DNA of 64,000 nt from a virus. Numbering within the stretch: the stretch's first letter is position 1; each line of letters opens with the position of its first letter. The notes under the pieces are model-generated. The model was not told the origin of the DNA. It was given only the letters and a program-made list of their open reading frames with translations, and ran no database searches. The stretch lies in the IMG/VR virus record IMGVR_UViG_3300045988_117710; one strand, 5' to 3'. The position numbers and the translations under genes were made by a program. Below, in pieces: positions 4,206 through 63,258 of the stretch.

Positions 4206-4706
4206 ATGGAAGCTTCTACAGAGACTAAGCAATTGTATAATTATTTACAACCTTTGGGGTTGAGTAATATGAATAGAGCTTTGCTTGCGAAGTTAAATTT
4301 TGATAAGTTTGATTTAGATACAGATTTAGTATTTTGTTGCAAAAGAAGTTGTGCTAATGAAGTTTTCTTAAAGTTATTATTTGCTTTGAAGACAAGTGAT
4401 TCTTATAAGGTTATTCCTTTATCAAGATTGTGTGCAATTAATGATGCCTATAAGACAGGTTATGTTGATCCTGATTATGGAGCATTGGCAGGTATTACTG
4501 ATACTAAGATTTTGTTTATTACTTCTGGAGGGTTTGAAGTTCCTAGTTATGTTGGTAACATTTTAGATGTTTTGATTCAGACTCGTAGACCTGCTGGGTT
4601 AAAGACTTTTGTATTCCATCTAGGAGATAAGACTGAGTTCTTATCATACAAGAGTACTTCTTTAACTAGATTACATTCATTGAGTGTTGGAGGTAGTAAG
4701 GTATGA
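4206..4706 (+). CDS. hypothetical protein, possible helicase loader/accessory
   Basis: ATG at 4206 after GAGAGGTG. Stop overlaps the DnaB-like start (ATGA). Function inferred from position only. Confidence 0.4.
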   Translation: MEASTETKQLYNYLQPLGLSNMNRALLAKLNFDKFDLDTDLVFCCKRSCANEVFLKLLFALKTSDSYKVIPLSRLCAINDAYKTGYVDPDYGALAGITDTKILFITSGGFEVPSYVGNILDVLIQTRRPAGLKTFVFHLGDKTEFLSYKSTSLTRLHSLSVGGSKV

Positions 4707-6220
4707 CGAATAAGGGTAAAGAGAGTCAAGTTGTTGCTAGAAAGTATGAGTTCAAGGATATCTTTGTTAACTTATTTGATAGTGATGAGACTCGAATTAA
4801 TGATTTTATAGGAGCATTAGAATCTAATGAAGTTCTGTATTGGAATGAAGTAGCTGCTTTGAATGGTTTCAAGCAATTACTAAAGGATTCTGGTGGAATT
4901 CCTACTATTGATTTATTTATGACAACTTTTCCAGATTCTAGTGCTGAGTGTGATTCTAGTTTTAAGACTAATGATTTGTTAGGTACTATTCGATTATTCA
5001 TTAGACAAAGAAAGAATATTTTAGCTGCTAATGCTTTAAGTTCATGTGTTAGTGTTGTCATGAGGGATGGAGTTACACCAGAGATTAGTGATGAGATTAG
5101 TAATATTCTTAAATCTGATGTTGTTGAAATTAAGTATGAAAATATCATAGACAGGATTGAAGAAAGATATGAAATGTCTGTTGAGAATTCTGGCATCAAG
5201 ACAGGTATTGAACAAGTAGACCAAGTTATTGGTGGTCTTAAAGCTGGTCAAGTGTCAGTTGTAGCAGGATTCACAGGAATGGGTAAATCTATTTGTTCTG
5301 TTAGTATTATGCATGCGGCTGTTGAACAAGGATATAATGTTTGTTATATTTCTCTTGAACTTAGTGCTGACCATTTAATGTATAATATGATTTCGAGACA
5401 TTCTCTTGAGACTAAGTTCTCAAAGAAGATTGAGCACAGACATCTTAAATCAAAGACTTTAAGTAGAACTGATTGGGATTATGTTAAGTCTGATATTCTA
5501 CCTGATTTGAGAAATATGCCTGGTAAGTTCTATATCCTAGATGAACAAGATATTGAAGGTTATAATTATTATTCCTTTGATAATAAGTTACAAGAGATTG
5601 AGAATTTATGTTTTAAGGAAACTGGTAAAGGTCTTGATTTAATAATTGTTGACCACATTCAGATGTTAGCTTTCTCTGATCAGGGTTCTAAACTTTCAGA
5701 GAATACTGTTATTAATAGATGGTGTAACTATTTCAGAAGTCAGTGTCTAGACTTTCTGAAATCAAAGAGACAGATTCATGTTATTCTGGTTGCTCAGATT
5801 AACCGTCAAGGTTATTTGAAAGCTGCAAGAAATAATGGGATGTATGATATGACTGCTCTTAAGGAAGCAAATGAAATTGAAACTTGTGCATCTGTTATAT
5901 TGGGTATTTATTCTGATACTTCTCTGATTACTTCTAATCAGACTAAGGTTGGTATTCTGAAGAACAGGGATGGTAGTCGTGTTGGAGATGCATATCAAGT
6001 ACCTGCTAACTATCCATATCAATTAATTGGTGGTGTTGGTTCTACTATTAAGACGGTTATGGCAAATGCAACTAGTGATACTCTTAATAATATGTTTGAT
6101 ACTATTGATGCATTTGGTGGAGAGGAAGCTTTCCAAGAAAGTGGTGGCTTTATGCCAGTTGAACAAGAAGATGTTGATTTCGTTGCTGATGATGGTTTTG
6201 GAATCAATGGTTTAATATAG
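4703..6220 (+). CDS. DnaB-like replicative DNA helicase
   Basis: Walker A GFTGMGKS, Walker B IIVDHIQM. RecA-like C-terminal domain with SLELS...ILVAQINRQ motifs and an N-terminal helical domain. 505 aa. Confidence 0.8.
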   Translation: MTNKGKESQVVARKYEFKDIFVNLFDSDETRINDFIGALESNEVLYWNEVAALNGFKQLLKDSGGIPTIDLFMTTFPDSSAECDSSFKTNDLLGTIRLFIRQRKNILAANALSSCVSVVMRDGVTPEISDEISNILKSDVVEIKYENIIDRIEERYEMSVENSGIKTGIEQVDQVIGGLKAGQVSVVAGFTGMGKSICSVSIMHAAVEQGYNVCYISLELSADHLMYNMISRHSLETKFSKKIEHRHLKSKTLSRTDWDYVKSDILPDLRNMPGKFYILDEQDIEGYNYYSFDNKLQEIENLCFKETGKGLDLIIVDHIQMLAFSDQGSKLSENTVINRWCNYFRSQCLDFLKSKRQIHVILVAQINRQGYLKAARNNGMYDMTALKEANEIETCASVILGIYSDTSLITSNQTKVGILKNRDGSRVGDAYQVPANYPYQLIGGVGSTIKTVMANATSDTLNNMFDTIDAFGGEEAFQESGGFMPVEQEDVDFVADDGFGINGLI

Positions 6221-6232
6221 AAGGAGGATTTT

Positions 6233-6610
6233 ATGGAATTAGAAAATAAGAATGGAGTTAAATTTAATTTAACTGAAGAAGAGTTTCTAGATGTTAGTGC
6301 TGCTGGATTACTTTTGGAACAAAGTTTTGTTGATTTTGAAGGAGAACCTAAAGACTTCATAGAATTAGCAAAGCTTCAAGTTCCACAACCAATGTTTTTA
6401 GATAGAACTGAGGAATCTTTATTACTTGGTAATTCTATCTTTATTGGTATTTGCACTTATGGTAAGGATTTTATAGACAAGATGCTTAAGGTTGATGATC
6501 CAACTACTGTAGTATTTAGTTTATTTAATTATTCTTTACAAATGATTGATTCTTTGACTAAAGATTCGTATAACAATGTAGAAAGTGAGGATGATAGTCA
6601 TGTTCAATAA
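6233..6610 (+). CDS. hypothetical acidic protein
   Basis: ORF with RBS AAGGAGG at 6222-6228. Confidence 0.5.
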
Positions 6611-8798: not shown

Positions 8799-8814
8799 TT
8801 CGTATTGTTATTAA

Positions 8815-8840
8815 GGTCAACTATTTAGTTGACTTTTTCT
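8815..8840. terminator. intrinsic terminator
   Basis: gtcaact-attt-agttgac hairpin, then T5. Confidence 0.55.
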
Positions 8841-9200: not shown

Positions 9201-10544
9201 ATGAATAATTTAGTGATTGCAAATCCCGAAAGGTTGGATGATCAGTCTTTTAAAATTACTATTGCTGGAAAAGACTATGAATATGAAATTTCAGAAGATA
9301 AGGATATTGATAAAGTAATAGCCAAGTTAGTTCAATGGATTTCAAGAGGAGATGATTCTTTTGGAGGGTTATATGATTATATTAAACGTAGTTTCCAATT
9401 AGTTGGTGAGTACGAGGAACCTGTTGTTGAAGATGAGCTTCCTGAAGAACCAAAATCTATCTTACCATCTGACGGTCAAGATTTAGATGATGTTCAATCT
9501 AATGAACTAGAATTCAAAGTAGATATACTTTCTAGTAGTGAAGTTAGTGTTTCTCTTGGAGAATTTTCTGCAGTATTTAATCTAGCTGGTAATGCAGATA
9601 ATTTTGAGACTGAGTTGAGAGAATTAATTAAAGATGAAATGACTCTTAAAGATAGAATTGATTTAAATACTTTTCTTGTTAAAGAACTCGATACTGATAA
9701 TTCAGTAGATGTTTATAATCTATCTGGTTTGGTTCTTGATCCAAACTTTGAGATAGTTTCTAGTGTTGAAGGTGAAGAACTTACAGATTTAGCTGTGGAT
9801 GGAGAACATGAAGTTCCAGATATTGTTATCGGTGATACAACAGATGAGGTTGATATTCCTAGTGATGATGCCGAGGTTGTTGATACTGAAGAAGTTGTGT
9901 CTGATGAAGATACAGAAGATGATTTAGAAGATGAAGCTCTTAATGCTGAAGAAGATTTAACAGATGATTATGAACCTAGTGAGGATGAAGAGTCTGAAGA
10001 GGATGATTCAGATGAAGAGGATGATGAAGATTCTAAATCAAAGAAGAAATCAAAGAAGAAATCTAAGAAGTCAAAGAAGAAATCGAAGAAGAAATCCAAG
10101 AAAGAATCTTATGATGCTTTTGGTAATCTCTTAACTGAAGATGAGGTGTTTGATGGTGTAATTGATTTACCTGTTGAACCAACTGAAATAGATTTTACAG
10201 ACGAAGAAGTCGAAGATAAGTTTACTCTTGAAGATTTAATTGTTTCTGAAGATTTCCTAAGTAGTTTAAGAGATTTAGGTTTATCTTTATTCAAATTTAC
10301 TAATAAGGATAATAATTTAGAGAATTTATACTTTGTTGGTGGTATTAATAGTAATGATGGTACTCTTTACACTTTAACCTACCAAATGGGAGATTCGTAT
10401 AGTACATTAGATGGAGAATTTGAAGATCTATCTACTAATGAATATGAACTATCTAATATTGAGGACTTAACTATTGTTACTAACTATTTAAGTAAGTTAT
10501 TAGATTTGGTTTATAATAGAGAGTTAGGAGAGGACAATGAGTAA
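9201..10544 (+). CDS. highly acidic protein with a central Lys/Ser (KSKKK) tandem repeat
   Basis: 447 aa, rich in Asp/Glu. A KSKKKSKKKSKKSKKKSKKKSKK block is flanked by DDSDEEDDED. Confidence 0.55.
   Translation: MNNLVIANPERLDDQSFKITIAGKDYEYEISEDKDIDKVIAKLVQWISRGDDSFGGLYDYIKRSFQLVGEYEEPVVEDELPEEPKSILPSDGQDLDDVQSNELEFKVDILSSSEVSVSLGEFSAVFNLAGNADNFETELRELIKDEMTLKDRIDLNTFLVKELDTDNSVDVYNLSGLVLDPNFEIVSSVEGEELTDLAVDGEHEVPDIVIGDTTDEVDIPSDDAEVVDTEEVVSDEDTEDDLEDEALNAEEDLTDDYEPSEDEESEEDDSDEEDDEDSKSKKKSKKKSKKSKKKSKKKSKKESYDAFGNLLTEDEVFDGVIDLPVEPTEIDFTDEEVEDKFTLEDLIVSEDFLSSLRDLGLSLFKFTNKDNNLENLYFVGGINSNDGTLYTLTYQMGDSYSTLDGEFEDLSTNEYELSNIEDLTIVTNYLSKLLDLVYNRELGEDNE
10034..10106 (+). repeat. 12-nt tandem repeat (aagaagaaatca)n encoding the KSKK units
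   Basis: Direct tandem repeats with synonymous third-position variation. Confidence 0.7.
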
Positions 10545-11400
10545 GAAGGTAATTAAGTCTGTTGATGTTTTAGACGATATAAGAGTAAATCCTGAAGAAG
10601 GTAAGAAGACAATTCTTAAGGTTATTGATAAGGATGAGAACAGAGAAGATAGAATGAAGTCAGCTGATTCTGCTGAAGTATTTCCAACTCCTGCTGAACC
10701 AGTTATTAATGAAGCTGTTAGTTCTACATTAAATCAAAATGTTAAGGATTATTTAATTCAAGATTTAACTAAAGAAGATTTTGTTGGTGATGAGGATGTT
10801 AAAGATGTTTTAGATAAGGTTGATATCTTTAAGATTCTTAATTCAGTTGATGGTGATTTAACTGAATCTTATGGTACTAACTATGGAGATATTAATATTC
10901 TATTCTCTAGAAGTTCTAAAGATTGTATCCGTGAGTCAGCTCTTATTGAATACTCTACTTCTGGTAATAAGTCATATGTTTTAGGACTTAATATTTTAGA
11001 AGCGGAAGATAATAAAGTTAACTTTATAGTTAAATCTAGTTATGGTGTTGATATTTATTCTAAAGTTTGTACACCAAATCAAATTGCTAATACTGTTTAC
11101 AGATTCTTGGAAGCAGTTTATTTAAGAGATAAGTTTGCAAGTATTCTTAATGAATCAGTTGATTCTGATAGATGGGGTGAAATCATTAGTGATGTTAATG
11201 AGTTTGCAAAGAATATAGATGCTGGTAAAGATGTTCTTAAGATTAGTTATTCTGAAGATAACTCTAAACCTTTAGAAGTTACTATTGCTAGAGGAACTAA
11301 TAATCAGGTATTCGATGATGTTAGAAAATATATAGAAGATACTTACAGAGATGAAGTTGAAATAACTGATATCGATGATTCAAGTTTCTTACTAAAGTAG
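10537..11400 (+). CDS. hypothetical protein
   Basis: Overlaps the upstream stop. 287 aa. Confidence 0.5.
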   Translation: MSKKVIKSVDVLDDIRVNPEEGKKTILKVIDKDENREDRMKSADSAEVFPTPAEPVINEAVSSTLNQNVKDYLIQDLTKEDFVGDEDVKDVLDKVDIFKILNSVDGDLTESYGTNYGDINILFSRSSKDCIRESALIEYSTSGNKSYVLGLNILEAEDNKVNFIVKSSYGVDIYSKVCTPNQIANTVYRFLEAVYLRDKFASILNESVDSDRWGEIISDVNEFAKNIDAGKDVLKISYSEDNSKPLEVTIARGTNNQVFDDVRKYIEDTYRDEVEITDIDDSSFLLK

Positions 11401-11415: not shown

Positions 11416-14400
11416 ATGAATGGTAATCAATTAATTACAAAGCATTCTGCTAAATTTGATACTGTTGAGAAATCTAAAAGACCTGGAGTTCTAGCTACTT
11501 TGAGAGGTCCTGTTACTGGATGGAAACCTAATCGTAATGGTAGAACTTATTCTAGGGATTTATGGGTTAAAGCATTAAATTCTGATTATGTTAAGGAACA
11601 AGTTGCTCTTAATCATTTTGTTGGTGAAGCAGATCACCCAGAAGAAAGACTTGAACCAGTAATTCAAAATATGTCACACGCTATGAGAGATTTTGAATTT
11701 GATGATGCTAATCAAGAAGTTATTGCTACTATTGATATTCTAGATACTCCATGTGGAAATATGCTTAAGACTTTATATGATTATTCTGGAGCTTTAAGTT
11801 TTTCTACTAGAGGTTCTGGAGATGTTTTAGAAGATGGTGAAGTTGATCCAGAAACATATCAATTATTTGCCATTGATGCTGTTTTAAGACCAAGTTATGC
11901 AACAGCTACTGTTAGAAATCTTTTAACTGAAAGTGAATCTTTACATAAGAATAAAGATGTTAAGAAGGTTCTTGAATCTTATTCTGGTGAGAAAGAATTA
12001 GATGAGTCTGTTGATTGGGATTATTTTAATATATTCCATGATATTAACGATAAATATTTACCTGATTCTGGTGAAGGTGATAATATGGCCACTCAAACTG
12101 TAACAGCTGTTAATAAGTTAGTTTATAAGTGGTATAATGATGGTGATGTATATGATAATTCAACTGCTTCTGGTCTAGATGGTTGGGGAAATGATTTATC
12201 TGATTATGCTAACTGGCTTGCAAAGAATATAGATGGTTGTAAGGATATTCTAGATAGAATTTTTGAAATCCATTATGGTGATAATGGTGCTTATGAAGAT
12301 TTACTTAAGGATTTAGCAAATAATTGTTTAGATGAAAATTTACTTTCTGGTTTAGCTACTCAACCTAAGGAAGGTTCTGTTTATGAATGTTCTGGTGATT
12401 ATTCTTTTGATGAGAGTAGAAACTATGATGAAGAATATGATGAGTCTGAAAACTTAGAAGAGGTTGTTCGTGTATACGATGATGAGAAAGATTATAGTTC
12501 TGAATTAGAGGAAGTATTCAATATTGTTGGTGGTTTTATTAATAATGATTTCAAATCTAATACCAAGGATTATTTAAGATATTCTGGTTCTACTGATCGT
12601 GTAGATAGTAGTAAAGTATTTGATGGTTTAGCTAGTGCATTAGGAGCTGCTGGTTATATTGTTTCTAAAGATCGTGTTTCTCATGCACATAATATTGGTA
12701 ACAATAATGCCTATGAAATATTCAAGGATTCTGAATGTATTGGATTCTTAAATGTTAATAGTGGTATGTATGGTGAAGCATATGTATATGTTGAGAACCT
12801 ATCTAATGGTAGAGTTGGTGGTGCTTGGGAATTACATTCTAGAGGTACTTCTACTTTCAAAGAAGGTGAAGAATTAGGTAAGGTTAATACTAAAACTGAT
12901 TTATCAAAGAAATATATCTTTAATGACAAGGGTGTTGAAAGAACTGTAACTGAAGTTGAACCACTTGCTTATAGAGATGGATATAAGTTTAGAGAGATTC
13001 TAGATAATGGTTCAGTAGGTAAAGTTGTTCATACTATGAGTAAAGCTGATTTTGATTCTTTAAAGGAATTAACTGAAGATGCTGATAGTGTTGTAGCAAT
13101 TCCTGATGATGTTAAGGAAGCTGTTGAAACTGAAGTTTATGATGATAGAAACATTGATGTTAGAAGTTCTATGTTCAAAGGTAATGATTTTGTAGTTGAA
13201 GCTAGAAATGAGTTATCTGAAGATGAATTTACTAAGATTGTTGATAGAATTCAATATCATTTCAATAATTATGGTATTGTTTATGACTCTATTGAAGATG
13301 ATGACAATAATGTAATTGCTATTGATTGTGGTATGTCTGCTAGTGCTTATGAAGAGTACAAAGCAAATTCTGATGATTATACTCTTAATGATGAATCATT
13401 TACTATGTATAATGCTGATACAGATAAAACTGTTAGAGTTTACAAAGATGGTGGTAAATGGGTAGATGAAGATGGTAATCGTTATATGAGTTACCTAACT
13501 AAGTCTGATATTAAGAAGTATTTCAAAGGTAATTGGGTTGAATTAGATGAGTCTGAACAATTAAATGAGTATGGTGATACTAAAGATTATTCAGAAGATA
13601 TTCAAAAGTTATTTAAGAAATGGTTTAAGGATAATGCTGATTTAGGTATTCGTGCTTGGCAGGCAATGACTGATTCATATCATTTAGATATTGAAACTAT
13701 GGATAAGGGTGAAGGTTCTGAAAGAAGAAAACTTTACAAGGTTGTTAATAATTCACCATTTGTTGAAGTTGAAGATTGGGCTGATGAGATTGGTGAGTAC
13801 ATTGCAGATAATTTACATTCATTAAAGTATATCAAACATACTTTCAATGATAAGTCATTCTTTAGTGATGATGAAACTGCTGGTGATATTACTTGGTACT
13901 TTGTTCAACAAATTGGTATGCCAGATTTTGGTGATAATATATTTGATTCAGAGAAGTTATCTGAAGACAATGAACCTAAGACTACTAAAGAGTTTAGAAT
14001 TATAGATACTGAAACTGGTAAGATTCTTAAGGTATTTAAAGATGATGAAGAATCTAAAGGTTATGAAGAAATGAGAGCCATGGGTGAAGAACTTAAGAAG
14101 GCAGGTAAAGAAGATAACTTAATCTATAAAGAGTTTAAGGTTAAGAACAAACCTGAAAGACTTAAGGAAGATTCTACTTGGGCTGAGATTATGATTGATA
14201 GAGCTTTAGAGTCTGGTGTTAGAAAGACACAATATCAAGATGTTGATGGTGTTAAGGATCAGTATTATGTAGTTGCTAATTTCCAAGACGTTGGAACTAG
14301 AGCAGATGCAAGAAAGTATTGTAAAGCTCAAGGATGGAGTGCTGTTAATGATTCTACTTTAGATAAGGGAGTTATGTATAGATATCCTTTAGTTATTTAT

Positions 14401-15249
14401 ATTCCTGCTGATAAGCTTCCAGATGGTGTTCAAGTAATTAATGAAGCTGGTGTTAATTTAGATGTTAGTGCTGGTGTTGATTTACCAGATGATGCTGTTA
14501 GTGGTATTATAAGTGCTCTACCTGCATTACTTGCTTCTGATAAACCAGATTTTGATACATTCTGTGAAGAGAATTATGAAGCAATTAATAATGCTTATGA
14601 TGAATGTAAGGCAAGTGATTTAGGTATTTCAGTAGAAGAGTATTGGGCTATGGATGAACCTGTAGATCCTAAATACTGGGAGATGGTTGCTAGAGATATG
14701 TATGAAGATAGTAATAGTTTAGTTGAAGATGTTAATGATTCTCAAGAATACATTGATAAATTCAATGAACTATATAGCAAGTATTGTGTTGCTAGTAAAG
14801 AAGATGAAGAAGTTATTAAGTCTGAAGTGGTTGATTTACTTACTAATGCACCTGTAGGAACTGCTTTATATAGACTTTATAAAGATACTTCTAGTGGATG
14901 GACTAGTCGTGGTTCTTATTCTAATACTAGAACTGAAATTCATGAATATCTAAAGTCAGGTGAAAATGAATGGACAATTAATGGTCGTAAGAAAAATGAC
15001 ATGAGAGATGCTATGTTATCAATCTTATATAATCCTGGAGAGTTCATGACTAAGGAAGAAGCAGAAGCTCAAAAGAAAGAGCAATCTAAGAATGATACTT
15101 CTTCTCGTAGAGAGATTGTAAATGTTGGTACTGATTCAGCTGGCAATCCTGTAGGTAAGTCTACTAATACTGTAACTTATCCAAATAGAGAAGTTGAGTC
15201 TGTTGATTTCTTGGATGATTACTTTGCATATCATAAAGGTAACTTCTAG
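11416..15249 (+). CDS. putative prohead protease fusion protein: N-terminal HK97-family (S78/U35-like) prohead serine protease domain plus a ~1100-aa acidic extension
   Basis: Residues ~20-135 fit the prohead-protease pattern: G-x-(A/V)-x-x-W...R-x-G-x-x-x-x-x-x-W-x-K-x-L, then L-N-H (candidate catalytic His67), then G-A-L-S-F-S-T-R-G (candidate catalytic Ser). The remainder is Asp/Glu-rich and scaffold-like. C-terminus DDYFAYHKGNF. Confidence 0.45.
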   Translation: MNGNQLITKHSAKFDTVEKSKRPGVLATLRGPVTGWKPNRNGRTYSRDLWVKALNSDYVKEQVALNHFVGEADHPEERLEPVIQNMSHAMRDFEFDDANQEVIATIDILDTPCGNMLKTLYDYSGALSFSTRGSGDVLEDGEVDPETYQLFAIDAVLRPSYATATVRNLLTESESLHKNKDVKKVLESYSGEKELDESVDWDYFNIFHDINDKYLPDSGEGDNMATQTVTAVNKLVYKWYNDGDVYDNSTASGLDGWGNDLSDYANWLAKNIDGCKDILDRIFEIHYGDNGAYEDLLKDLANNCLDENLLSGLATQPKEGSVYECSGDYSFDESRNYDEEYDESENLEEVVRVYDDEKDYSSELEEVFNIVGGFINNDFKSNTKDYLRYSGSTDRVDSSKVFDGLASALGAAGYIVSKDRVSHAHNIGNNNAYEIFKDSECIGFLNVNSGMYGEAYVYVENLSNGRVGGAWELHSRGTSTFKEGEELGKVNTKTDLSKKYIFNDKGVERTVTEVEPLAYRDGYKFREILDNGSVGKVVHTMSKADFDSLKELTEDADSVVAIPDDVKEAVETEVYDDRNIDVRSSMFKGNDFVVEARNELSEDEFTKIVDRIQYHFNNYGIVYDSIEDDDNNVIAIDCGMSASAYEEYKANSDDYTLNDESFTMYNADTDKTVRVYKDGGKWVDEDGNRYMSYLTKSDIKKYFKGNWVELDESEQLNEYGDTKDYSEDIQKLFKKWFKDNADLGIRAWQAMTDSYHLDIETMDKGEGSERRKLYKVVNNSPFVEVEDWADEIGEYIADNLHSLKYIKHTFNDKSFFSDDETAGDITWYFVQQIGMPDFGDNIFDSEKLSEDNEPKTTKEFRIIDTETGKILKVFKDDEESKGYEEMRAMGEELKKAGKEDNLIYKEFKVKNKPERLKEDSTWAEIMIDRALESGVRKTQYQDVDGVKDQYYVVANFQDVGTRADARKYCKAQGWSAVNDSTLDKGVMYRYPLVIYIPADKLPDGVQVINEAGVNLDVSAGVDLPDDAVSGIISALPALLASDKPDFDTFCEENYEAINNAYDECKASDLGISVEEYWAMDEPVDPKYWEMVARDMYEDSNSLVEDVNDSQEYIDKFNELYSKYCVASKEDEEVIKSEVVDLLTNAPVGTALYRLYKDTSSGWTSRGSYSNTRTEIHEYLKSGENEWTINGRKKNDMRDAMLSILYNPGEFMTKEEAEAQKKEQSKNDTSSRREIVNVGTDSAGNPVGKSTNTVTYPNREVESVDFLDDYFAYHKGNF

Positions 15250-15270
15250 GAGTTGCCTTTTTCTTTATTA

Positions 15271-15280
15271 TTCGTATAAT
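15271..15280 (+). promoter_or_regulatory. class-A promoter-like motif TTCGTATAAT
   Basis: Follows a T-rich tract after the stop of 11416..15249; 23 nt upstream of the AGGAGGAG RBS. Confidence 0.45.
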
Positions 15281-15302
15281 ATAGTAATTAGGAGGAGATT
15301 AT

Positions 15303-16388
15303 ATGAGTACTCATTGTGGTATAGGAATTAAACGTAAGAATGGTGCTGTTGATGCTACTTATTGTCATTTTGATGGATATCTTGATGGTGTTGGTGAGAA
15401 TCTTAAGAATTTCTTTAGAGATGCTGATAAGGTAAGTAATCTAGTTAGTATGGGTGATTTAAGAGGTATTAGTGATTCTGGTGAAGTTGAAGCTTTCGAT
15501 GATGAAGTTGGTTTTGATGACAAACATTTCAGATCTGTAGAAGAGTTTCTTCAAAGTGATTTAGGAACTTTAGAATATACTTATTTATTTGATGAAGATA
15601 CTAATAGATGGTATTTCCTAGGTGGAGAGGATCCAGAAACTGATATTTTTGATGGTTCTTTAGGAATGTATCATTTAGATAGAGAATCTTTAGAGGAAGA
15701 TGATAAGTCAACTTTCGAGATATTTAGAAGAACTTATCCTAGAGGACAAAATTCTTATGAAGTAGTTATTGATGAAACTATTTATAGAGATGGACGTGGT
15801 AGAAGACATAGTGACCATAAGACTTATAAGGTTTATAAGAATGGTGAACAAATTTTATTTACTTCAGTTCCTCAAACTTATAATAAGTGTTTAAGAAATA
15901 TTGAAGCTGGTAAGTATGATTTTATGTCTGTTAAAGAGATTTCTAATTCTCTTACTGGTGTTAATGAAAGTGAGTTCTATGTTAAGGAATTCAATCAAGA
16001 TGGAACTAATATAGATTATGTTGAGTTTGATAGTCAACATGAAGCAGAAGATTATGCAAGTTCTTTAAATAAGAAGACAGGACATGAAGTTGCTGTTTAT
16101 ATGAGTTCTAATGATGAATGTATTTCTCTTTATGATAAGTTAGATGAACATTCTTTAAAAGACTTAGTTGCTGATAATGATAGTGAGGCAATGAGAAAGT
16201 TAATTAGTTATTGTGAAAATTTTGGTACTAATGAAGTTTGGGAAGAAACTTTAAAACAATTACTAAAATATGTTTCTGAAGATGTTATTGAAAATTATAT
16301 TCATTATGAATTGAATGATTTAGTTTCTGATGAAGTTCCAGAAAGTATTACTGATGACTATTTTGATTTCCATAATGGAAATTATTAA
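15303..16388 (+). CDS. hypothetical protein sharing a C-terminal DDYF-x-FH-x-GN-[FY] motif with the upstream protease-fusion protein
   Basis: C-terminus DDYFDFHNGNY, compared with DDYFAYHKGNF in the previous gene. Confidence 0.5.
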   Translation: MSTHCGIGIKRKNGAVDATYCHFDGYLDGVGENLKNFFRDADKVSNLVSMGDLRGISDSGEVEAFDDEVGFDDKHFRSVEEFLQSDLGTLEYTYLFDEDTNRWYFLGGEDPETDIFDGSLGMYHLDRESLEEDDKSTFEIFRRTYPRGQNSYEVVIDETIYRDGRGRRHSDHKTYKVYKNGEQILFTSVPQTYNKCLRNIEAGKYDFMSVKEISNSLTGVNESEFYVKEFNQDGTNIDYVEFDSQHEAEDYASSLNKKTGHEVAVYMSSNDECISLYDKLDEHSLKDLVADNDSEAMRKLISYCENFGTNEVWEETLKQLLKYVSEDVIENYIHYELNDLVSDEVPESITDDYFDFHNGNY

Positions 16389-16414
16389 TTCTAATTAAGA
16401 AAGAAGGTAGATTT

Positions 16415-17887
16415 ATGAAATTATTAAGTAATGACAGACCCTTTGATGTTTGGTCTAAAGCAACTAGTATTCTCTATAGAGCTGTGGCGCATACTTTAGG
16501 TCCTAATGGTGCTAATACAGCTGTTGTATATGGAGATAGATTAGAATCTAATGCTAAGTTTAATATTATTAATGATGGTAAATCTATTATTGATAATTTA
16601 ACTAGTGAAGAAGCTGTTGTGGCTTGTGCTTTACAAACATTGAAAGAGTCTGTTCTTTCAACTAACAATAATGCAGGTGATGGTACTACTAGTACTATTG
16701 TTATGTTGCATGGTTTAGTTTCTGATTTGAATAATTATTTTGATGTTGATAAGGATTCTATTAAGTTATGTTCATTGGTTAGAAGAATCAAGAAAGAGTT
16801 ACTTGATATTCTTCCAAGTATTACTGAAGATGTGTCTATTGATGATGTTTTCAATATTGCAACTACCAGTTTAGGTTCTGATGAGTATTCTTCTTTGTTT
16901 GATGAAGCTTTCAGATTTGTTGGGGAGAATGGTAAGGTTCTTCTTGAGAGAACTACTGGTGATGAGTGTGTTGTTGAGAAGTTAGATGGTGTTTCTTTTG
17001 ATCGTGTTGGTCTTGTTGCAGAGTTACTTCTTGATGATATTGGAACTATTAATAAGACAGTTGATGCTAGGTCAATTATTCTAGATGGAGATATTTCTTC
17101 ATTCAGTCAGATATCAAAGATTCTTTTAGCAGGTAAGACATCTGATGTTCCTATTGTAATGTACTTTACGAAGATGACTCAAGAGGTTTTCCAATTGATG
17201 CTTCAGAATATTGTTAAGTCTGATATGAAGATAATTCCTGTTTCTCTTGAAGGTTATGGTCAAGAGAAAGTAAGATATATTAAGTTACTTGAATCTGTAA
17301 TTGGTCATGATGCTGTTAAGATTGGTGACTTGGCTGGGGTTCAAGATTTATCTGATGTGAATCATTATATTTTTAATTCTGATGCGATGATGGTTCGTCC
17401 ATTGGATATGGAGAAATTTGAGGAAGTAAAAGACCAATTAAGGTTGAATATTTCTTCAAAGACTGCTATTATTAAAGTAGGTGCTGGTAATGCTGTACTC
17501 CAAGAGGAATTATTCAAGAGATTTGAAGATGCTGTGTATTCAGTGTCAAATTCTCTTAAATTTGGTCGTTGTTTAGGGGGAGGGGTTAGTTATATTACTT
17601 TGGCAGATAAGTTTGCTGAAGGGGCTGATTCTTCGGTTTCTAGTTGGATTAAGAATGCTATGCGATGTGTATACAAGTTGTTACTTGAAAATTGTGATTT
17701 GACTTTTGAGGATAATGGTACTTATTTATTACCTAAGTTTGATGCTGAAACTGATTCTTGGTCTTTGAGTGATGAATTGGTTGTATATGATTCTTATAAG
17801 GTAATTGAGCAAGTAGTTTCCAATAGTTTTGATATGTTATACTCAATTCTATCGGTAAAAGCATTTATTCTTGATCCAAAACGTTAA
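16415..17887 (+). CDS. GroEL-like group I chaperonin (phage-encoded Cpn60 homolog)
   Basis: 490 aa. Aligns with GroEL at TLGPNGANTAVV (GroEL VTLGPKGRNVVL), NDGKSI (KDGVSV) and AGDGTTSTIVML (AGDGTTTATVLA), with a later GGGV motif. No GroES-like gene adjacent. Confidence 0.7.
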   Translation: MKLLSNDRPFDVWSKATSILYRAVAHTLGPNGANTAVVYGDRLESNAKFNIINDGKSIIDNLTSEEAVVACALQTLKESVLSTNNNAGDGTTSTIVMLHGLVSDLNNYFDVDKDSIKLCSLVRRIKKELLDILPSITEDVSIDDVFNIATTSLGSDEYSSLFDEAFRFVGENGKVLLERTTGDECVVEKLDGVSFDRVGLVAELLLDDIGTINKTVDARSIILDGDISSFSQISKILLAGKTSDVPIVMYFTKMTQEVFQLMLQNIVKSDMKIIPVSLEGYGQEKVRYIKLLESVIGHDAVKIGDLAGVQDLSDVNHYIFNSDAMMVRPLDMEKFEEVKDQLRLNISSKTAIIKVGAGNAVLQEELFKRFEDAVYSVSNSLKFGRCLGGGVSYITLADKFAEGADSSVSSWIKNAMRCVYKLLLENCDLTFEDNGTYLLPKFDAETDSWSLSDELVVYDSYKVIEQVVSNSFDMLYSILSVKAFILDPKR

Positions 17888-17904
17888 TTTTTCAAAAAGT
17901 TTAC

Positions 17905-17945
17905 ACTGAACAAAGTCTTATTTCACTGGGCTTTGTTCTCTTTTA
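17905..17945. terminator. intrinsic terminator
   Basis: gaacaaag...ctttgttc stem with a long loop, then TCTTTT. Confidence 0.45.
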
Positions 17946-17997
17946 TGAAAAGTTTTCTAAATTTTTTGCAAAATTTAGTTCACTTTTTTAGAGTTCT

Positions 17998-18007
17998 AGT
18001 GTATAAT
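17998..18007 (+). promoter_or_regulatory. class-A variant promoter (AGTGTATAAT) in the 173-nt regulatory region
   Basis: GTGTATAAT is the -10-like element. Downstream hairpin ggttata-N11-tataacc (18008-18033) sits in the leader of the gene at 18062. Confidence 0.3.
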
Positions 18008-18061
18008 GGTTATAGTTGGAGGCAGGTATAACCACTGCACTAACGAGAAAGGTGGTATATT

Positions 18062-18934
18062 ATGAATACAAATGAACAATTCGGTTATGACAAATTATTG
18101 ACAAAGGAGGAATTCTACTTAGATGTGATTTATCCCAATATTGTGAAGTCTGCTGGTATCTTTTATTTCAAAGAGGAGTATGCAAGAGCCAGAAGAAATG
18201 GTAATACTATTGAGGATGTAATCCAACAAACTTTCTTCTATGCTTATAAGCCATTAGTACGTGGTGGTAAGTATGGCAAAGCTGGAGGAACTATTTATGA
18301 TTATTATGTGGATAATTATTTCCATGTAAAGAACGGGGATGTTGCACAAGTTCCTATTTATGAAAAGGATGAGAATGGTAAGAAGGTTGAGACAGGTGAG
18401 TATCGTGAAGTTCCTATAACACCTTGCCTTAATACAATTCGTGCTTATATGAATACCTTTGTTAGAAATGTTTTGGTTGATATGTGTAAGGTAGCAGAGA
18501 ATCAAAAGACTTTAGTTTCTTTTGATACACCTATTGGTGATGAAGAGGATGGTAGAACTCTTCTAGATGTTTTCTCTGATACTGAAGATAGCTCTATTAA
18601 TGAAACTATTGATGATTTTCATATCACTGTTAAGGATACGTTTTTGATTAACACTTATGGTAAAAAGATTAATATTCTTGATGTTTTATATTCTTTAGAG
18701 AGTGGTTCTTCTGTTAAGGATGTATGCAATCAATTTAATTTAAGTACTTATGATGTTCTTAACTTCTTTAAAGAGAATTTTAATCTAATGCAAGATAGTT
18801 TTGATGCTGTTACAGATGTTAGTAGAGTTAAGCTAGAACAAAAGTTACGTCGTGCCAAGAAAGAATTGTCTAAAGTTGAAGAAGTAATTTCTGATTATAC
18901 TTTAGATGCCATCAGGGAGTTTATGTTAAGTTAG
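18062..18934 (+). CDS. hypothetical protein, possibly a sigma-factor-like transcription regulator
   Basis: Weak resemblance to sigma region 2.2 (IEDVIQQTFFYAYKPL, compared with EDLIQEGNIGLMKAV). Possible C-terminal HTH (SVKDVCNQFNLSTYDVLNFF). Long regulatory leader. Confidence 0.25.
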   Translation: MNTNEQFGYDKLLTKEEFYLDVIYPNIVKSAGIFYFKEEYARARRNGNTIEDVIQQTFFYAYKPLVRGGKYGKAGGTIYDYYVDNYFHVKNGDVAQVPIYEKDENGKKVETGEYREVPITPCLNTIRAYMNTFVRNVLVDMCKVAENQKTLVSFDTPIGDEEDGRTLLDVFSDTEDSSINETIDDFHITVKDTFLINTYGKKINILDVLYSLESGSSVKDVCNQFNLSTYDVLNFFKENFNLMQDSFDAVTDVSRVKLEQKLRRAKKELSKVEEVISDYTLDAIREFMLS

Positions 18935-18961
18935 CAATGATTCATTCATTGCTTTCTTTTT
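18934..18961. terminator. intrinsic terminator
   Basis: gcaatg-attcatt-cattgc hairpin, then TTTCTTTTT. Confidence 0.55.
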
Positions 18962-18969
18962 CGTATAAT
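18960..18969 (+). promoter_or_regulatory. class-A promoter-like motif TTCGTATAAT
   Basis: Directly after the terminator; 20 nt before the RBS of the clamp-loader gene. Confidence 0.45.
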
Positions 18970-18989
18970 ACATTGAAAGAGGTGAATTT

Positions 18990-19979
18990 ATGTTATCAAT
19001 TGAGAAAAGACCTAAGACTTGGGATGAAGTAGTTGGTCAAGATTCTGCTGTTCGTCTTTTGAAATCGGTTGTCAAGAATGCCAAGGAAGCTCCTAGGTGT
19101 ATTATTTTACAAGGTCCTTTTGGTACTGGTAAGACAACTTTAGGTAGAATATTTGCTTCTGCTCTTAACAAGAATTTATTTACTGGTCCAGTGGATGCTT
19201 CACCATTCTATAGTGAGTTTGACTCGAGTGCAGTTGGTAATGTAGCAACTATTAGGGAATTAAGAGATAGTTTTCATTGGTCTGGTGAGGGGTATCGTGT
19301 ATTTCTATTCGATGAGATGCAACTTTCTTCTAAACAAGCTCAATCAGCTTTGCTTAAAGTTATTGAGGAAGTAGAAGATAATTGTTTCTTTATGTTTGCA
19401 ACTACTGATCCACAGGATTTACTTCCTACTATTATTTCTAGATCTTTGGTTGTACCACTTAATCTTATTTCTGATGAAGCTTTAAGGGAAAGATTAGATG
19501 TTGTTATTGGTGAGCTTAATGTTAATGTTTCTGAAGATGTAAGAAAGTTAATCGTTGAGAAGGCACATGGTCATGGTCGTAACCTTATGATGTTATTAGA
19601 TAATTATCTATTGTTGGGTGAAGAACATTTTCATGAGTTTCTTAAGTCTTCAGTAGATATATTTGTGGAGTTATTTGTTTCTATATTCAATCATGATTTA
19701 ACTACTTTTAAGAAGTGTATAGATGATTTACAAACTTTTAGTTTATCTGATTTAAATTCAGATTATAATGTTTGTGTTAGTGATATTCTTAAGGGTTGTG
19801 TTGGTGCAGAGGTTTCCCATCCTGAAGTTAATAGGATTGTTAATACTTGTAAACCACATTTTGTTAGATTAGCAAGATTGTTAAGAGATAATGTTGTAAC
19901 TTCTTGTTTTACAGATCCTGTATCTTTTATGTCAGGAATGTATTTTATTTATGGTTCTATAGCAGGTGTTTCACGTTAG
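18990..19979 (+). CDS. AAA+ clamp-loader ATPase (T4 gp44 / RFC small-subunit / DnaX-like)
   Basis: RFC-box-like KTWDEVVGQ, Walker A GPFGTGKTT, Walker B LFDEMQ, sensor-1 FMFATT and an SRS motif (IISRSLVV). Confidence 0.75.
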   Translation: MLSIEKRPKTWDEVVGQDSAVRLLKSVVKNAKEAPRCIILQGPFGTGKTTLGRIFASALNKNLFTGPVDASPFYSEFDSSAVGNVATIRELRDSFHWSGEGYRVFLFDEMQLSSKQAQSALLKVIEEVEDNCFFMFATTDPQDLLPTIISRSLVVPLNLISDEALRERLDVVIGELNVNVSEDVRKLIVEKAHGHGRNLMMLLDNYLLLGEEHFHEFLKSSVDIFVELFVSIFNHDLTTFKKCIDDLQTFSLSDLNSDYNVCVSDILKGCVGAEVSHPEVNRIVNTCKPHFVRLARLLRDNVVTSCFTDPVSFMSGMYFIYGSIAGVSR

Positions 19980-37684: not shown

Positions 37685-38146
37685 ATGGAGAAGATTGCAA
37701 GTTTTACTGTAGATCATACAGTTTTGTTACCTGGAGTGTATATTAGTAGGGTTGATGAAGATATTGTTACTTATGATATTAGAATTAAGCGACCTAATAC
37801 TGATGATTTGATGTCTAATGAGGAGATGCATTCGGTTGAGCATTTATTGGCTACGGCATTGAGGAATTCTTATCTTAAGGATGATGTTATTTACTTTGGT
37901 CCTATGGGTTGCCAAACGGGTTATTATTGTCTTATGAGAGTGGATTCTGGGTTTAATTTTATGAAGTTTCTGAAGGATGTTATGATTTATGCTCTTTCTT
38001 TTGATTCTATGCCAGGTCAATCTGCTGTTGAGTGTGGTAATTATAAGAATTTAGATTTAGAATTAGGTAAGTCTTGTATTAAGAATTACTTGAATTTACT
38101 TGATTCTTTTGAGGATATTTGTGAATATCCAAAGAAACTTGATTAA
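37685..38146 (+). CDS. luxS: S-ribosylhomocysteine lyase (LuxS) homolog
   Basis: SFTVDHT matches the LuxS N-terminus. Metal-binding HxxEH is present as HSVEH. The catalytic-Cys context GPMGCQTGYY matches SPMGCRTGFY. CGNY matches CGTY. 153 aa. Confidence 0.8.
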   Translation: MEKIASFTVDHTVLLPGVYISRVDEDIVTYDIRIKRPNTDDLMSNEEMHSVEHLLATALRNSYLKDDVIYFGPMGCQTGYYCLMRVDSGFNFMKFLKDVMIYALSFDSMPGQSAVECGNYKNLDLELGKSCIKNYLNLLDSFEDICEYPKKLD

Positions 38147-62085: not shown

Positions 62086-63258
62086 ATGTTGAAAAGTTTA
62101 AAAGGTAAAGTTATTACAGCTGAGTCAGTTTCAGTAGGACATCCAGATAGTTACATGGATTATGTTGTTAACAGTTGTTTGGATGCAGTTATGGGAGCAG
62201 ATCCTAGTGCCAGATTTGCTTGTGATGGTGTTGCGAAGGATAAGAAAGTAGTTCTTGCTGGTGAGATTACTACAACTAATGAAAATCTTAAAGAATTACT
62301 TAAGTCTACTGTTTTAGAAGCAACTAAAGAAGTAGGATATGAATGGGAACCAGAAGTTCAATTAGAAGTTTATCAACAATCACCTGATATTGCATTAGGT
62401 ACTAATGATGGTATGGGTGAACAACTTGGAGCTTCTGACCAAGGAACTCAATCTGGTTATGCTTGTAATGAAACTGATGAATACTATCCATTAGTTAAAG
62501 CAGTGGCTGATGAATTAGTTAGAGAATTATTCTTCAAGTTCAAACATGGAGAATTTAAAGATGCGAAAGCAGATATTAAAACTCAAGTTACTATTGATTA
62601 TACAGGAGATGTTCCTAAAGCAAAGACAGTTGTAGTTGCTGCAAGTCATGCTGAAGATTTCAATGAACCTGAATTCAAGATGTTTATTCAAAGAGAAGCA
62701 ATTACTATTCTAGAAAGATTTGGTGTAGATGCTTCTGATGTAAGATTTATTATTAATGGAACTGGTAAATTTACTATCTATGGTCCTATTGGAGATTCTG
62801 GTGAAGTTGGTCGTAAGATAGTTGTAGATGCTTATGGATTACATCCACTTGCTACTGTTGGTGGAGGTACATATAATGGTAAGTATGCTGGTCATGTTGA
62901 TCGTGTTGCTGCTTATGGATGTCGTTATCTAGCAAAGAATATAGTAGCTGCTGGGTTAGCTGATGAATGTCGTATTGATGTTGCTTATTGTATTGGTATT
63001 TCTGAACCAATGTCTGTAAGATTTGATTTCAATGGAACTGCTCATATAGATGAAGAAACAATTATTGCTAAGGCATTAGAATTATTTAGCTTTACTCCAT
63101 ATAACTTAAGAAAGATGTTCACAATGGGTGATTTTGCAACTGCTGGATTAATGTGTCACTTTGGTGAGACTAATAAGTTAAGTTTACACAATGGTGAACC
63201 TGTTGCAATTCCATGGGAGCAATTAGATTTAGTTGATGAATTAAAGAAACTTGTATAA
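62086..63258 (+). CDS. metK: S-adenosylmethionine synthetase (MetK) homolog
   Basis: ESVSVGHPD matches SESVSEGHPDK. GEITT is present. [12 protein letters not shown] matches [19 protein letters not shown] matches [42 protein letters not shown] matches [35 protein letters not shown]. Confidence 0.85.
   Translation: [390 protein letters not shown]

Follow-up and report, generated by a model that had tools for sequence, protein, structure and literature searches.

The DNA analyzed in this study is one strand of 64,000 nucleotides (nt) from the IMG/VR virus record IMGVR_UViG_3300045988_117710, referred to in its whole length as the window. At positions 16415–17887 of the plus strand, stop codon included, it carries a gene for a compact chaperonin of the group I type. 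The gene starts with ATG, is preceded by a Shine-Dalgarno-like GAAGG (16403–16407, plus strand, read from the sequence) located 7 nt 5' of the start codon, and encodes a protein of 490 amino acids (aa) that is ~21% identical to GroEL and 58 residues shorter. Its translation contains the chaperonin motifs HTLGPNGAN (residues 26–34), AGDGTTST (87–94), and LGGGV (387–391). The Pfam profile Cpn60_TCP1 (PF00118) matched residues 21–486 with an E-value of 7.5e-25 and 88 bits (cut-off 34.3), which is a full-length match to the Cpn60/TCP-1 superfamily above the curated threshold, and PHROG 5725 ('chaperonin groEL') matched with an E-value of 4e-43. The best matches among PDB sequences were bacterial and chloroplast GroEL chains (E ~1e-19 to 2e-20); chains of group II chaperonins matched with E-values of 4e-7 or weaker. 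Judged from these sequence comparisons, 16415–17887 is a real gene and its assignment to the Cpn60 family is secure. The original prediction of a phage-encoded, GroEL-like chaperonin with Cpn60 signatures is in agreement with the quoted motifs, all of which are present, and with the Pfam, PHROG, and PDB matches. Its view that phage chaperonins are rare did not hold, as 113 deposited phage records matched the 490-aa protein in a tblastn search and virioplankton surveys found viral chaperonins to be common (PMC5649160). All 113 records were <25% identical, and a near-identity DNA search of positions 15000–19000 against deposited phages returned zero matches.

The chaperonin was compared residue by residue with Salmonella GroEL as reference, using 16 members of its family. 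The equivalents of GroEL L31, G32, P33, G35, N37, D52, G53, D87, G88, T89, T90, D398, G414, G416, and D495 were invariant in all 16 members. Exceptions at the nucleotide site were T30 (Ser in one of the 16), T91 (Ser throughout), and G415 (Ala in some members); the site of the window protein is conserved, and the equivalent of the catalytic D398 is conserved family-wide. Invariant columns in a larger alignment of 35 sequences include LGPxGxN, NDG, AGDGT-ST (with T92 nearly invariant), ED, and GxG. The alignment to the GroEL ATPase motifs that had been proposed as a check thus recovered the ATP-site residues, and the failure named beforehand as grounds for rejecting the assignment did not occur. 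The ratio of nonsynonymous to synonymous substitution rates (dN/dS) was 0.22 relative to the 74%-identical copy in locus L004, indicating that the chaperonin is under purifying selection.

Compared with GroEL, the entire family lacks residues 333–350 (apical helix K), 431–434, 463–468, and 527–548, the last segment being the 22-residue Gly-Met tail. The deleted segments 431–434 and 463–468 hold the inter-ring contact residues E434, S463, and V464, and R452 and E461 are not conserved; at the sequence level, the double-ring contacts of group I chaperonins (R452/E461/S463/V464 and A109/E434) are therefore missing. As had been noted before, the protein has no C-terminal GGM tail and ends with a conserved Arg equivalent to GroEL K526. 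This ending is not unusual, because most of the 74 chaperonins in our table, which covers the window together with related metagenomic and IMG/VR contigs, extend only 0–9 residues past the K526 equivalent. The Gly-Met tail, a group I feature, does not discriminate here, and its loss is not distinctive because most viral chaperonins lack it as well. Since E. coli GroEL can do without its 27 C-terminal residues in both assembly and function (PMC11978752), the truncation is also compatible with activity. In the helix K region, the compact family keeps 5–13 of 24 residues, compared with 21–25 in all other tabulated viral chaperonins. Among the compact traits it is only the loss of helix K that sets the family apart in these alignments. 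The αK–αL apical hairpin is present in group I and absent in group II chaperonins (PMC7185714); across the compact family it is not retained, and a single helix (332–341) is left.

An AlphaFold2 model of the chaperonin, built on 35 diverse members, reached a predicted local distance difference test score (pLDDT) of 85.1 and a predicted template modeling score (pTM) of 0.74, and it has one helix at the site of the GroEL K–L hairpin. In Foldseek searches, the model aligned with open, apo GroEL and mitochondrial Hsp60 (mtHsp60) at template modeling (TM) scores of 0.70–0.76 and with GroES-bound subunits at 0.57–0.61. The top 50 matches were all group I chaperonins, in line with a GroEL-like fold that lacks the group II protrusion. 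The apical domain of the model is shorter than that of GroEL and shows no apical insertion or built-in lid. Residues of the chaperonin that would contact GroES or substrate are altered (Y199G, L234S, V264Q), and the GroEL R197–E386 pair is broken by E386A. The hydrophobic apical groove is partly kept (L204, L205, L237, F259, and L263).

Of 5.8 billion proteins searched, 424 qualified as homologues at E ≤ 1e-5; the best 120 are 392–511 aa long and all carry PF00118. Among the matches listed, six homologues are 74–96% identical to the window chaperonin, ~20 are 42–47% identical and reside on contigs of up to 197 kb, and large clades of 471–479-aa proteins are 28–30% identical and were found on contigs of 115–134 kb. 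The sources are host-associated metagenomes, one of them a Human Microbiome Project sample. The compact family is a large, uncharacterized, metagenomic family of phage chaperonins with 455–511 aa that differs from every characterized chaperonin of this type in its subunit size and in the absence of helix K. Our literature search found no description of this family or of its GroES-like partner gene presented below.

In the search for GroES-like genes in related loci, 73 chaperonin loci from IMG/VR served as controls, and a Cpn10 profile was started from Salmonella GroES. This profile recovered ordinary GroES genes beside about half of the non-compact viral chaperonins, and the same iterated profile also matched small open reading frames (ORFs) near the compact chaperonins. 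Because an iterated profile will always match the sequences that it was built from, we used a control Cpn10 profile that excluded the compact loci and a search with the seed at round 0. The control profile, which had never been trained on compact loci, matched the ORF in L007 with an E-value of 0.003. A four-sequence seed profile found, in its first round, the same gene in L011–L015 and L018 (1e-13 to 1e-22), ORFs in L002, L008, and L010 (1e-4 to 2e-5), and, at 8e-5, the bona fide GroES of L052, which itself matches Pfam Cpn10 with an E-value of 1.9e-12 and 47.5 bits. The small ORFs, referred to as ES-like, do not qualify as Cpn10 by Pfam: eight of the nine proteins tested had no Cpn10 match, and the L007 protein scored 14.6 bits (E = 0.033), below the cut-off of 21.1 bits. 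PHROG GroES matches were likewise sub-threshold (E = 0.016 and 0.036), and Pfam Cpn10 and PHROG GroES were the top or joint-top matches for the L007 and L009 proteins. When 12 ES-like members were compared with 23 bona fide GroES sequences in hhalign, the profiles aligned over 84 of ~95 columns with 91.8% probability and an E-value of 7.6e-7; the negative control gave 0.2%. The ES-like alignment shows an N-terminal PLxDxVLVK-like and a C-terminal DIlAvi-like segment, as expected of remote homology that extends over the whole domain. As the results of the control and seed profiles, the sub-threshold Pfam and PHROG matches, and the hhalign comparison agree, we consider the small ORF family to be a probable, highly divergent homologue of GroES.

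The ES-like gene lies ≤10 kb from the chaperonin in 13 of the 17 compact loci, and no such gene was found within 10 kb in the compact loci L016 and L017. Such proteins are encoded, for example, at 12210–12527 in L007 and at 5968–6291 in L002. Contigs of 196977, 191401, 189772, 183464, 114585, and 10284 bp encode an ES-like protein as well as a chaperonin. The precomputed Pfam annotation misses the ES-like family. Its position varies: the gene is located upstream of the chaperonin, after DnaB, in the clade that is 45% identical to the window protein; the distant clades have it 3' of the chaperonin, where it follows a sigma-like gene.

A Human Microbiome Project sample contains the phage of the window on a contig of 179,133 bp, and another contig, of 185,308 bp, carries a relative that is 97% identical; the window therefore represents about one third of the genome. 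On the left, the 179-kb contig ends ~800 bp beyond the window, and on the right a further 10 kb could be read. Hence, the search for a lid gene in this phage covered 74 kb of the ~179-kb genome, and ~104 kb lies outside. Among the 38 small plus-strand ORFs of the window, no member of a Cpn10 or other co-chaperonin family was found with Pfam or PHROGs. Two local Cpn10 profiles, run against all stop-to-stop segments on both strands of the window, also returned nothing (best E-value 0.3, i.e. noise), and in six relatives the precomputed Pfam annotation contains no Cpn10 within 10 kb of the chaperonin. The earlier observation that no GroES- or gp31-like gene is adjacent to the chaperonin was thus borne out, and neither the rest of the 64-kb window nor the 10 kb past its right edge yielded one. 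We also considered the 361-aa ORF directly upstream of the chaperonin as a cryptic co-chaperonin; it was rejected, having no Pfam match, a PHROG match only to phrog_1987, and no homologue at that position elsewhere.

Gene order in the sister clades shows where an ES-like gene would be expected. In L002 and L010, DnaB is followed by two genes, the ES-like gene, and a homologue of the window ORF 6233–6610; in L008, the order is DnaB, ES-like gene, and the same homologue. In the window and in L004, the ORF 6233–6610 or its homologue follows DnaB after 12–15 nt. The corresponding slot of the window, between DnaB (4703–6220) and ORF 6233–6610, is empty and consists of the 12 nt at 6221–6232. Because the ES-like gene changed its position between clades, relocation of a lid gene in the window subclade is as plausible as its loss.

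The chaperonin transcription unit ends with a terminator-like hairpin at 17908–17938 (plus strand), an 11-bp stem followed by UCUCUUUU. The predicted RNA fold has a free energy of −14.6 kcal/mol (z = −3.38), and 0 of 200 shuffled sequences were as stable. A promoter-like TTCACT-17-TATAAT at 17979–18007 precedes the next gene; this is a match to the consensus only, and the sigma-70 promoter scan was uninformative (58 sites found vs 70 expected by chance). Terminator-like hairpins exactly at gene ends were also detected at 8813–8836, 15235–15260, and 18933–18953, and in the scanned 13 kb six were found vs 2.6 expected, suggesting short transcription units. The chaperonin is probably co-transcribed with the 361-aa acidic ORF located directly 5' of it (15303–16388, plus strand), which itself is preceded closely by the hairpin at 15235–15260 and a promoter-like site at 15253–15280. 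The N-terminal 110 aa of this ORF match phrog_1987, a family of unknown function, and the ORF, which was found only in the subclade of the window and L004, is not conserved 5' of the chaperonin in other clades.

Four very acidic proteins (Asp plus Glu 20–29%) are encoded 5' of the chaperonin. The largest one (11416–15249, plus strand) has 1277 aa and combines a prohead protease domain of the S77 (T4 gp21) type in its first ~195 aa (Pfam Peptidase_S77, E = 1.1e-6; PHROG 207, E = 8.7e-32) with an acidic extension of ~1080 aa. Its gene is an insertion specific to the subclade of the window and L004 and is absent from L002, L008, and L010. Segments of the acidic extension turn up within separate proteins encoded at distant loci, namely those of 573 and 995 aa in L007. 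The 1277-aa protein and the 361-aa ORF end with DDYFAYHKGNF and DDYFDFHNGNY, respectively, and the shared pattern DDYFx[FY]HxGN[FY] directly before the stop codon (window 15214–15246 and 16353–16385) is also found in the 876-aa homologue of L004 (9942–9974). This motif might serve as a prohead-targeting or docking tail. The families of the two other acidic proteins occur near the chaperonin across clades. One is a 287-aa protein (10537–11400, plus strand), whose family is located directly 5' of the chaperonin in L002, L008, and L010 and one to three genes 5' elsewhere. Its AlphaFold2 model (pLDDT 66) has 88 disordered N-terminal residues and gave no fold match at E ≤ 0.001 in Foldseek, and neither its single sequence nor its profile matched anything in the PDB. 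The other one is a very acidic 447-aa protein (Asp plus Glu 29%; 9201–10544, plus strand), whose family keeps a conserved place two genes 5' of the chaperonin. A long poly-acidic stretch precedes KSKKK repeats in this protein, which has conserved N- and C-terminal parts and a variable middle and yielded no PDB, Pfam, or PHROG match; its scaffold-like character lies in its composition alone. A single conserved partner family directly upstream was considered and rejected, as different genes abut the chaperonin in different clades.

The most constant neighbor of the chaperonin is a 290-aa gene family (18062–18934, plus strand), which lies directly 3' of compact chaperonins in eight distinct loci (the window, L002, L004, and L006–L010); in the distant clades it is flanked by the chaperonin on one side and the GroES-like gene on the other. 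Its profile matched a sigma factor (E = 0.0064) and RpoD regions 3–4 (E = 0.08) in the PDB, and Pfam Sigma70_r3 was found in three of seven members and r2 in one, all sub-threshold. This sigma-70-like similarity is weak and should be regarded as a lead only.

The window is part of a large uncultured myovirus. All its predicted genes are on the plus strand, the guanine-plus-cytosine (GC) content is 31.7%, the GC skew is very strong and uniform at about +0.29 (1–64000), and no tRNA genes were found in the 64 kb. Structural and replication genes are interleaved in the fashion of T4 and include genes for a baseplate wedge, DnaB, the S77 prohead-protease-domain protein, clamp loader, PolA, primase, portal, SbcD, endolysin, tail sheath, and UvsX. 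A tblastn search with PolA found no cultured relative above ~33% identity. The window further encodes a 153-aa homologue of LuxS (S-ribosylhomocysteinase, the autoinducer-2 synthase; 37685–38146, plus strand; Pfam LuxS E = 3.5e-42) with an HxxEH motif, and an S-adenosylmethionine synthetase (62086–63258, plus strand), of which an identical protein has all three Pfam domains. Genes for this synthetase also occur near the chaperonin in L007 and L009. Past the right edge, the same phage (L083, 11331–18596) encodes TelA, a 398-aa Clp_N plus AAA protein, ribosomal protein L9, Thg1, and a 216-aa proteasome/HslV-like protein (weak match). SpoVS-family genes are present in the distant compact-chaperonin phages (L006 1921–2181, L007 1318–1590, and L009 3899–4156), hinting at Firmicutes as hosts of these phages.

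We propose that the window gene encodes an ATP-driven, ring-forming group I chaperonin that would fold or hold phage proteins during infection; which proteins these might be is considered below. As helix K, the C-terminal tail, and both ring–ring contact loops are lost, a single heptameric ring would be the likeliest assembly. The compact family would form a two-component system, in which the small divergent GroES-like gene probably supplies the lid. The window chaperonin may still cycle with such a lid, provided either by a relocated or further-diverged phage gene in the ~104 kb outside the search or by the GroES of the host, and we regard lid-dependent operation in one of these forms as an even call. 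Several results weigh against this proposal. The ES-like family profile reached no GroES chain when compared with PDB sequences (profile hidden Markov model versus sequence), and the homology with Cpn10 consists of profile–profile evidence plus sub-threshold matches to curated families. The missing contact residues are the sole basis of the single-ring prediction. The ES-like gene was not detected in the locus of the closest relative, L004, nor in the 64-kb window or the 10 kb past its right edge, and the large protein search likewise yielded no ES-like protein for the contigs of this subclade. Moreover, the three altered residues of the chaperonin are at GroES- or substrate-binding positions, and the three characterized phage chaperonins, those of EL, OBP, and AR9, all work lid-free in vitro. 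Several of these points speak for a ring that operates without any lid, which would bind non-native phage proteins and release them through its ATP cycle without encapsulation, the subclade having truly lost the GroES-like gene. The empty syntenic slot, the purifying selection that still acts on the chaperonin, the two further compact loci (L016 and L017) without an ES-like gene within 10 kb, the existence of a viral GroEL-only clade, and the open state of the AlphaFold2 model are in accordance with such a loss. However, most of the compact family keeps the ES-like gene, and the ancestral machine is therefore argued to have needed a lid. The gene has moved between clades, making relocation plausible, and ~58% of the genome lies outside the searched part. 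In addition, the chaperonin has neither a built-in lid nor an apical insertion, and its apical domain is smaller than that of GroEL. The original inference that the chaperonin works without a co-chaperonin like EL gp146 also loses ground, because EL gp146 is only a distant relative and the sister clades carry a probable GroES-like gene. On balance, we judge lid-free operation possible but doubtful. We consider it unlikely that the full combination applies, in which the compact chaperonins without helix K, together with their cryptic partners of the GroES type, constitute a distinct, so far unrecognized two-component lineage of large host-associated phages and the window subclade is a natural case of lid loss with a lid-free ring; if true, it would provide a matched pair of lid-dependent and lid-independent close relatives for dissecting how encapsulation is gained or lost.

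Within lid-dependent operation, recruitment of the host GroES would be the reverse of the situation in T4, whose gp31 serves the host GroEL. The partly retained hydrophobic groove, the group I fold, and the lack of a visible phage lid gene in the searched 74 kb are compatible with this option, which Marine et al. raised for GroEL-only viral clades (PMC5649160). Binding of host GroES is uncertain, because several GroES- or substrate-binding residues are changed; helix K is deleted as well, and EL gp146 failed to bind E. coli GroES. Host GroES appears a quite unlikely lid. That the protein is a decayed or repurposed GroEL homologue without ATP-driven chaperone activity, as its low identity to GroEL and its several deletions could suggest, is very improbable given that the family as a whole keeps the residues of the nucleotide and Mg2+ sites, the equivalent of the catalytic D398 among them, that dN/dS is low, and that there are hundreds of full-length homologues and a confident three-domain model. 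Compatible with any lid scenario is a dedicated role in head assembly, with a prohead protein (major capsid protein, protease, or core) as client. Such a folding aid for a head protein had been suggested from the position of the gene next to protease- and scaffold-like genes, and the chaperonin indeed closes a transcription unit that follows the S77 prohead-protease-domain protein and very acidic, scaffold-like proteins. Two of the upstream proteins share the C-terminal motif, the 447-aa and 287-aa families stay by the chaperonin across clades, and the T4 capsid protein requires GroEL together with gp31 (PMC9598537). The adjacency of the protease, however, did not extend beyond the subclade, its gene being a subclade-specific insertion, and the window contained no identifiable major capsid protein. 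The interleaving of structural and replication genes in this phage also speaks against the idea. The conserved neighbors are without recognizable function or fold, the surrounding genes encode DnaB, clamp loader, PolA, and primase, and the known substrates of the EL, OBP, and AR9 chaperonins are endolysins and not head proteins. A link of the chaperonin to prohead proteins, drawn from composition and non-conserved adjacency, is thus possible, and a dedicated head-assembly chaperone appears possible but doubtful.

Phage chaperonins are the main natural examples with which to examine if GroEL-type rings can function lid-free, and only three, all of full size, have been studied. The compact family adds at least several hundred distinct metagenomic sequences that are smaller than any characterized subunit of this type, lack a helix considered a hallmark of group I, and seem to own a lid that annotation pipelines miss. 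Of more interest than the single gene is the family as a whole, which has a cryptic putative lid gene that one subclade lacks in its searched parts. Should the lid assignment be correct, many phages annotated as 'GroEL-only' may have been misjudged in the same way. Should the subclade indeed have lost its lid, a comparison with its lid-bearing sisters, which are 45% identical, would directly test which properties a ring requires to work without GroES.

Among known systems, bacterial GroEL/GroES of E. coli and Salmonella is closest to the compact family with respect to the best sequence and structure matches, the three-domain subunit, the identical nucleotide-site residues, and the probable Cpn10 partner in the sister clades. 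It differs in that the compact chaperonin lacks helix K and the Gly-Met tail and has both inter-ring contact loops shortened, and in that the gene for the partner does not adjoin it as in an operon and was not found in the searched 74 kb of this genome. The SR1 mutations of GroEL, which Weissman et al. reportedly introduced in 1995, are said to affect R452, E461, S463, and V464; these residues are unconserved or deleted in the compact family, whose single-ring state is a prediction. Single-ring mtHsp60 structures are among the best fold matches of the model. Helix K, which the compact chaperonin has lost, is still present in SR1 and mtHsp60, and these two depend on GroES or Hsp10. Pseudomonas phage EL gp146, OBP gp246, and Bacillus phage AR9 gp228 resemble the window chaperonin as GroEL homologues of large myoviruses that have no built-in lid and weakened or absent ring–ring contacts, OBP gp246 and AR9 gp228 being single heptamers. 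In contrast to the compact proteins, they have ~550–560 aa (61 kDa) and keep the K–L helical hairpin, which makes extra contacts in EL. EL gp146 (PDB 6tmt) matched the window protein with an E-value of 2.6e-7 over residues 15–159 only, compared with ~1e-20 for bacterial GroEL, so that the two are not closely related. No GroES has been recognized in the genomes of EL, OBP, and AR9, whereas the compact family usually comes with an ES-like gene. The phage lids T4 gp31 and RB49 CocO provide a precedent for co-chaperonins too divergent for routine detection; they serve the host GroEL in phages without a chaperonin of their own, whereas here the divergent putative lid accompanies a phage chaperonin. 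In virioplankton, viral GroELs are common and form clades with the order GroES>GroEL, with GroEL>GroES, or with no GroES (Marine et al. 2017, PMC5649160). The 'GroEL-only' clade of the literature may correspond to a distinct clade of IMG/VR chaperonins with 501–508 aa (L035, L038, L051, L054, L055, L057, L060, L061, L067, and L073), which keep helix K, lack the tail, have a shortened 461–470 loop, and show no GroES that could be detected within 10 kb. In the distant compact clades the order is GroEL>...>ES-like, and in this respect they resemble the virioplankton clades. They differ in that the virioplankton GroELs had to span residues 8–514 and their GroES partners were recognizable by BLAST and CDD (PMC5649160), whereas the partner in the compact family falls below the Pfam and PHROG thresholds and is separated from the chaperonin by a sigma-like gene.

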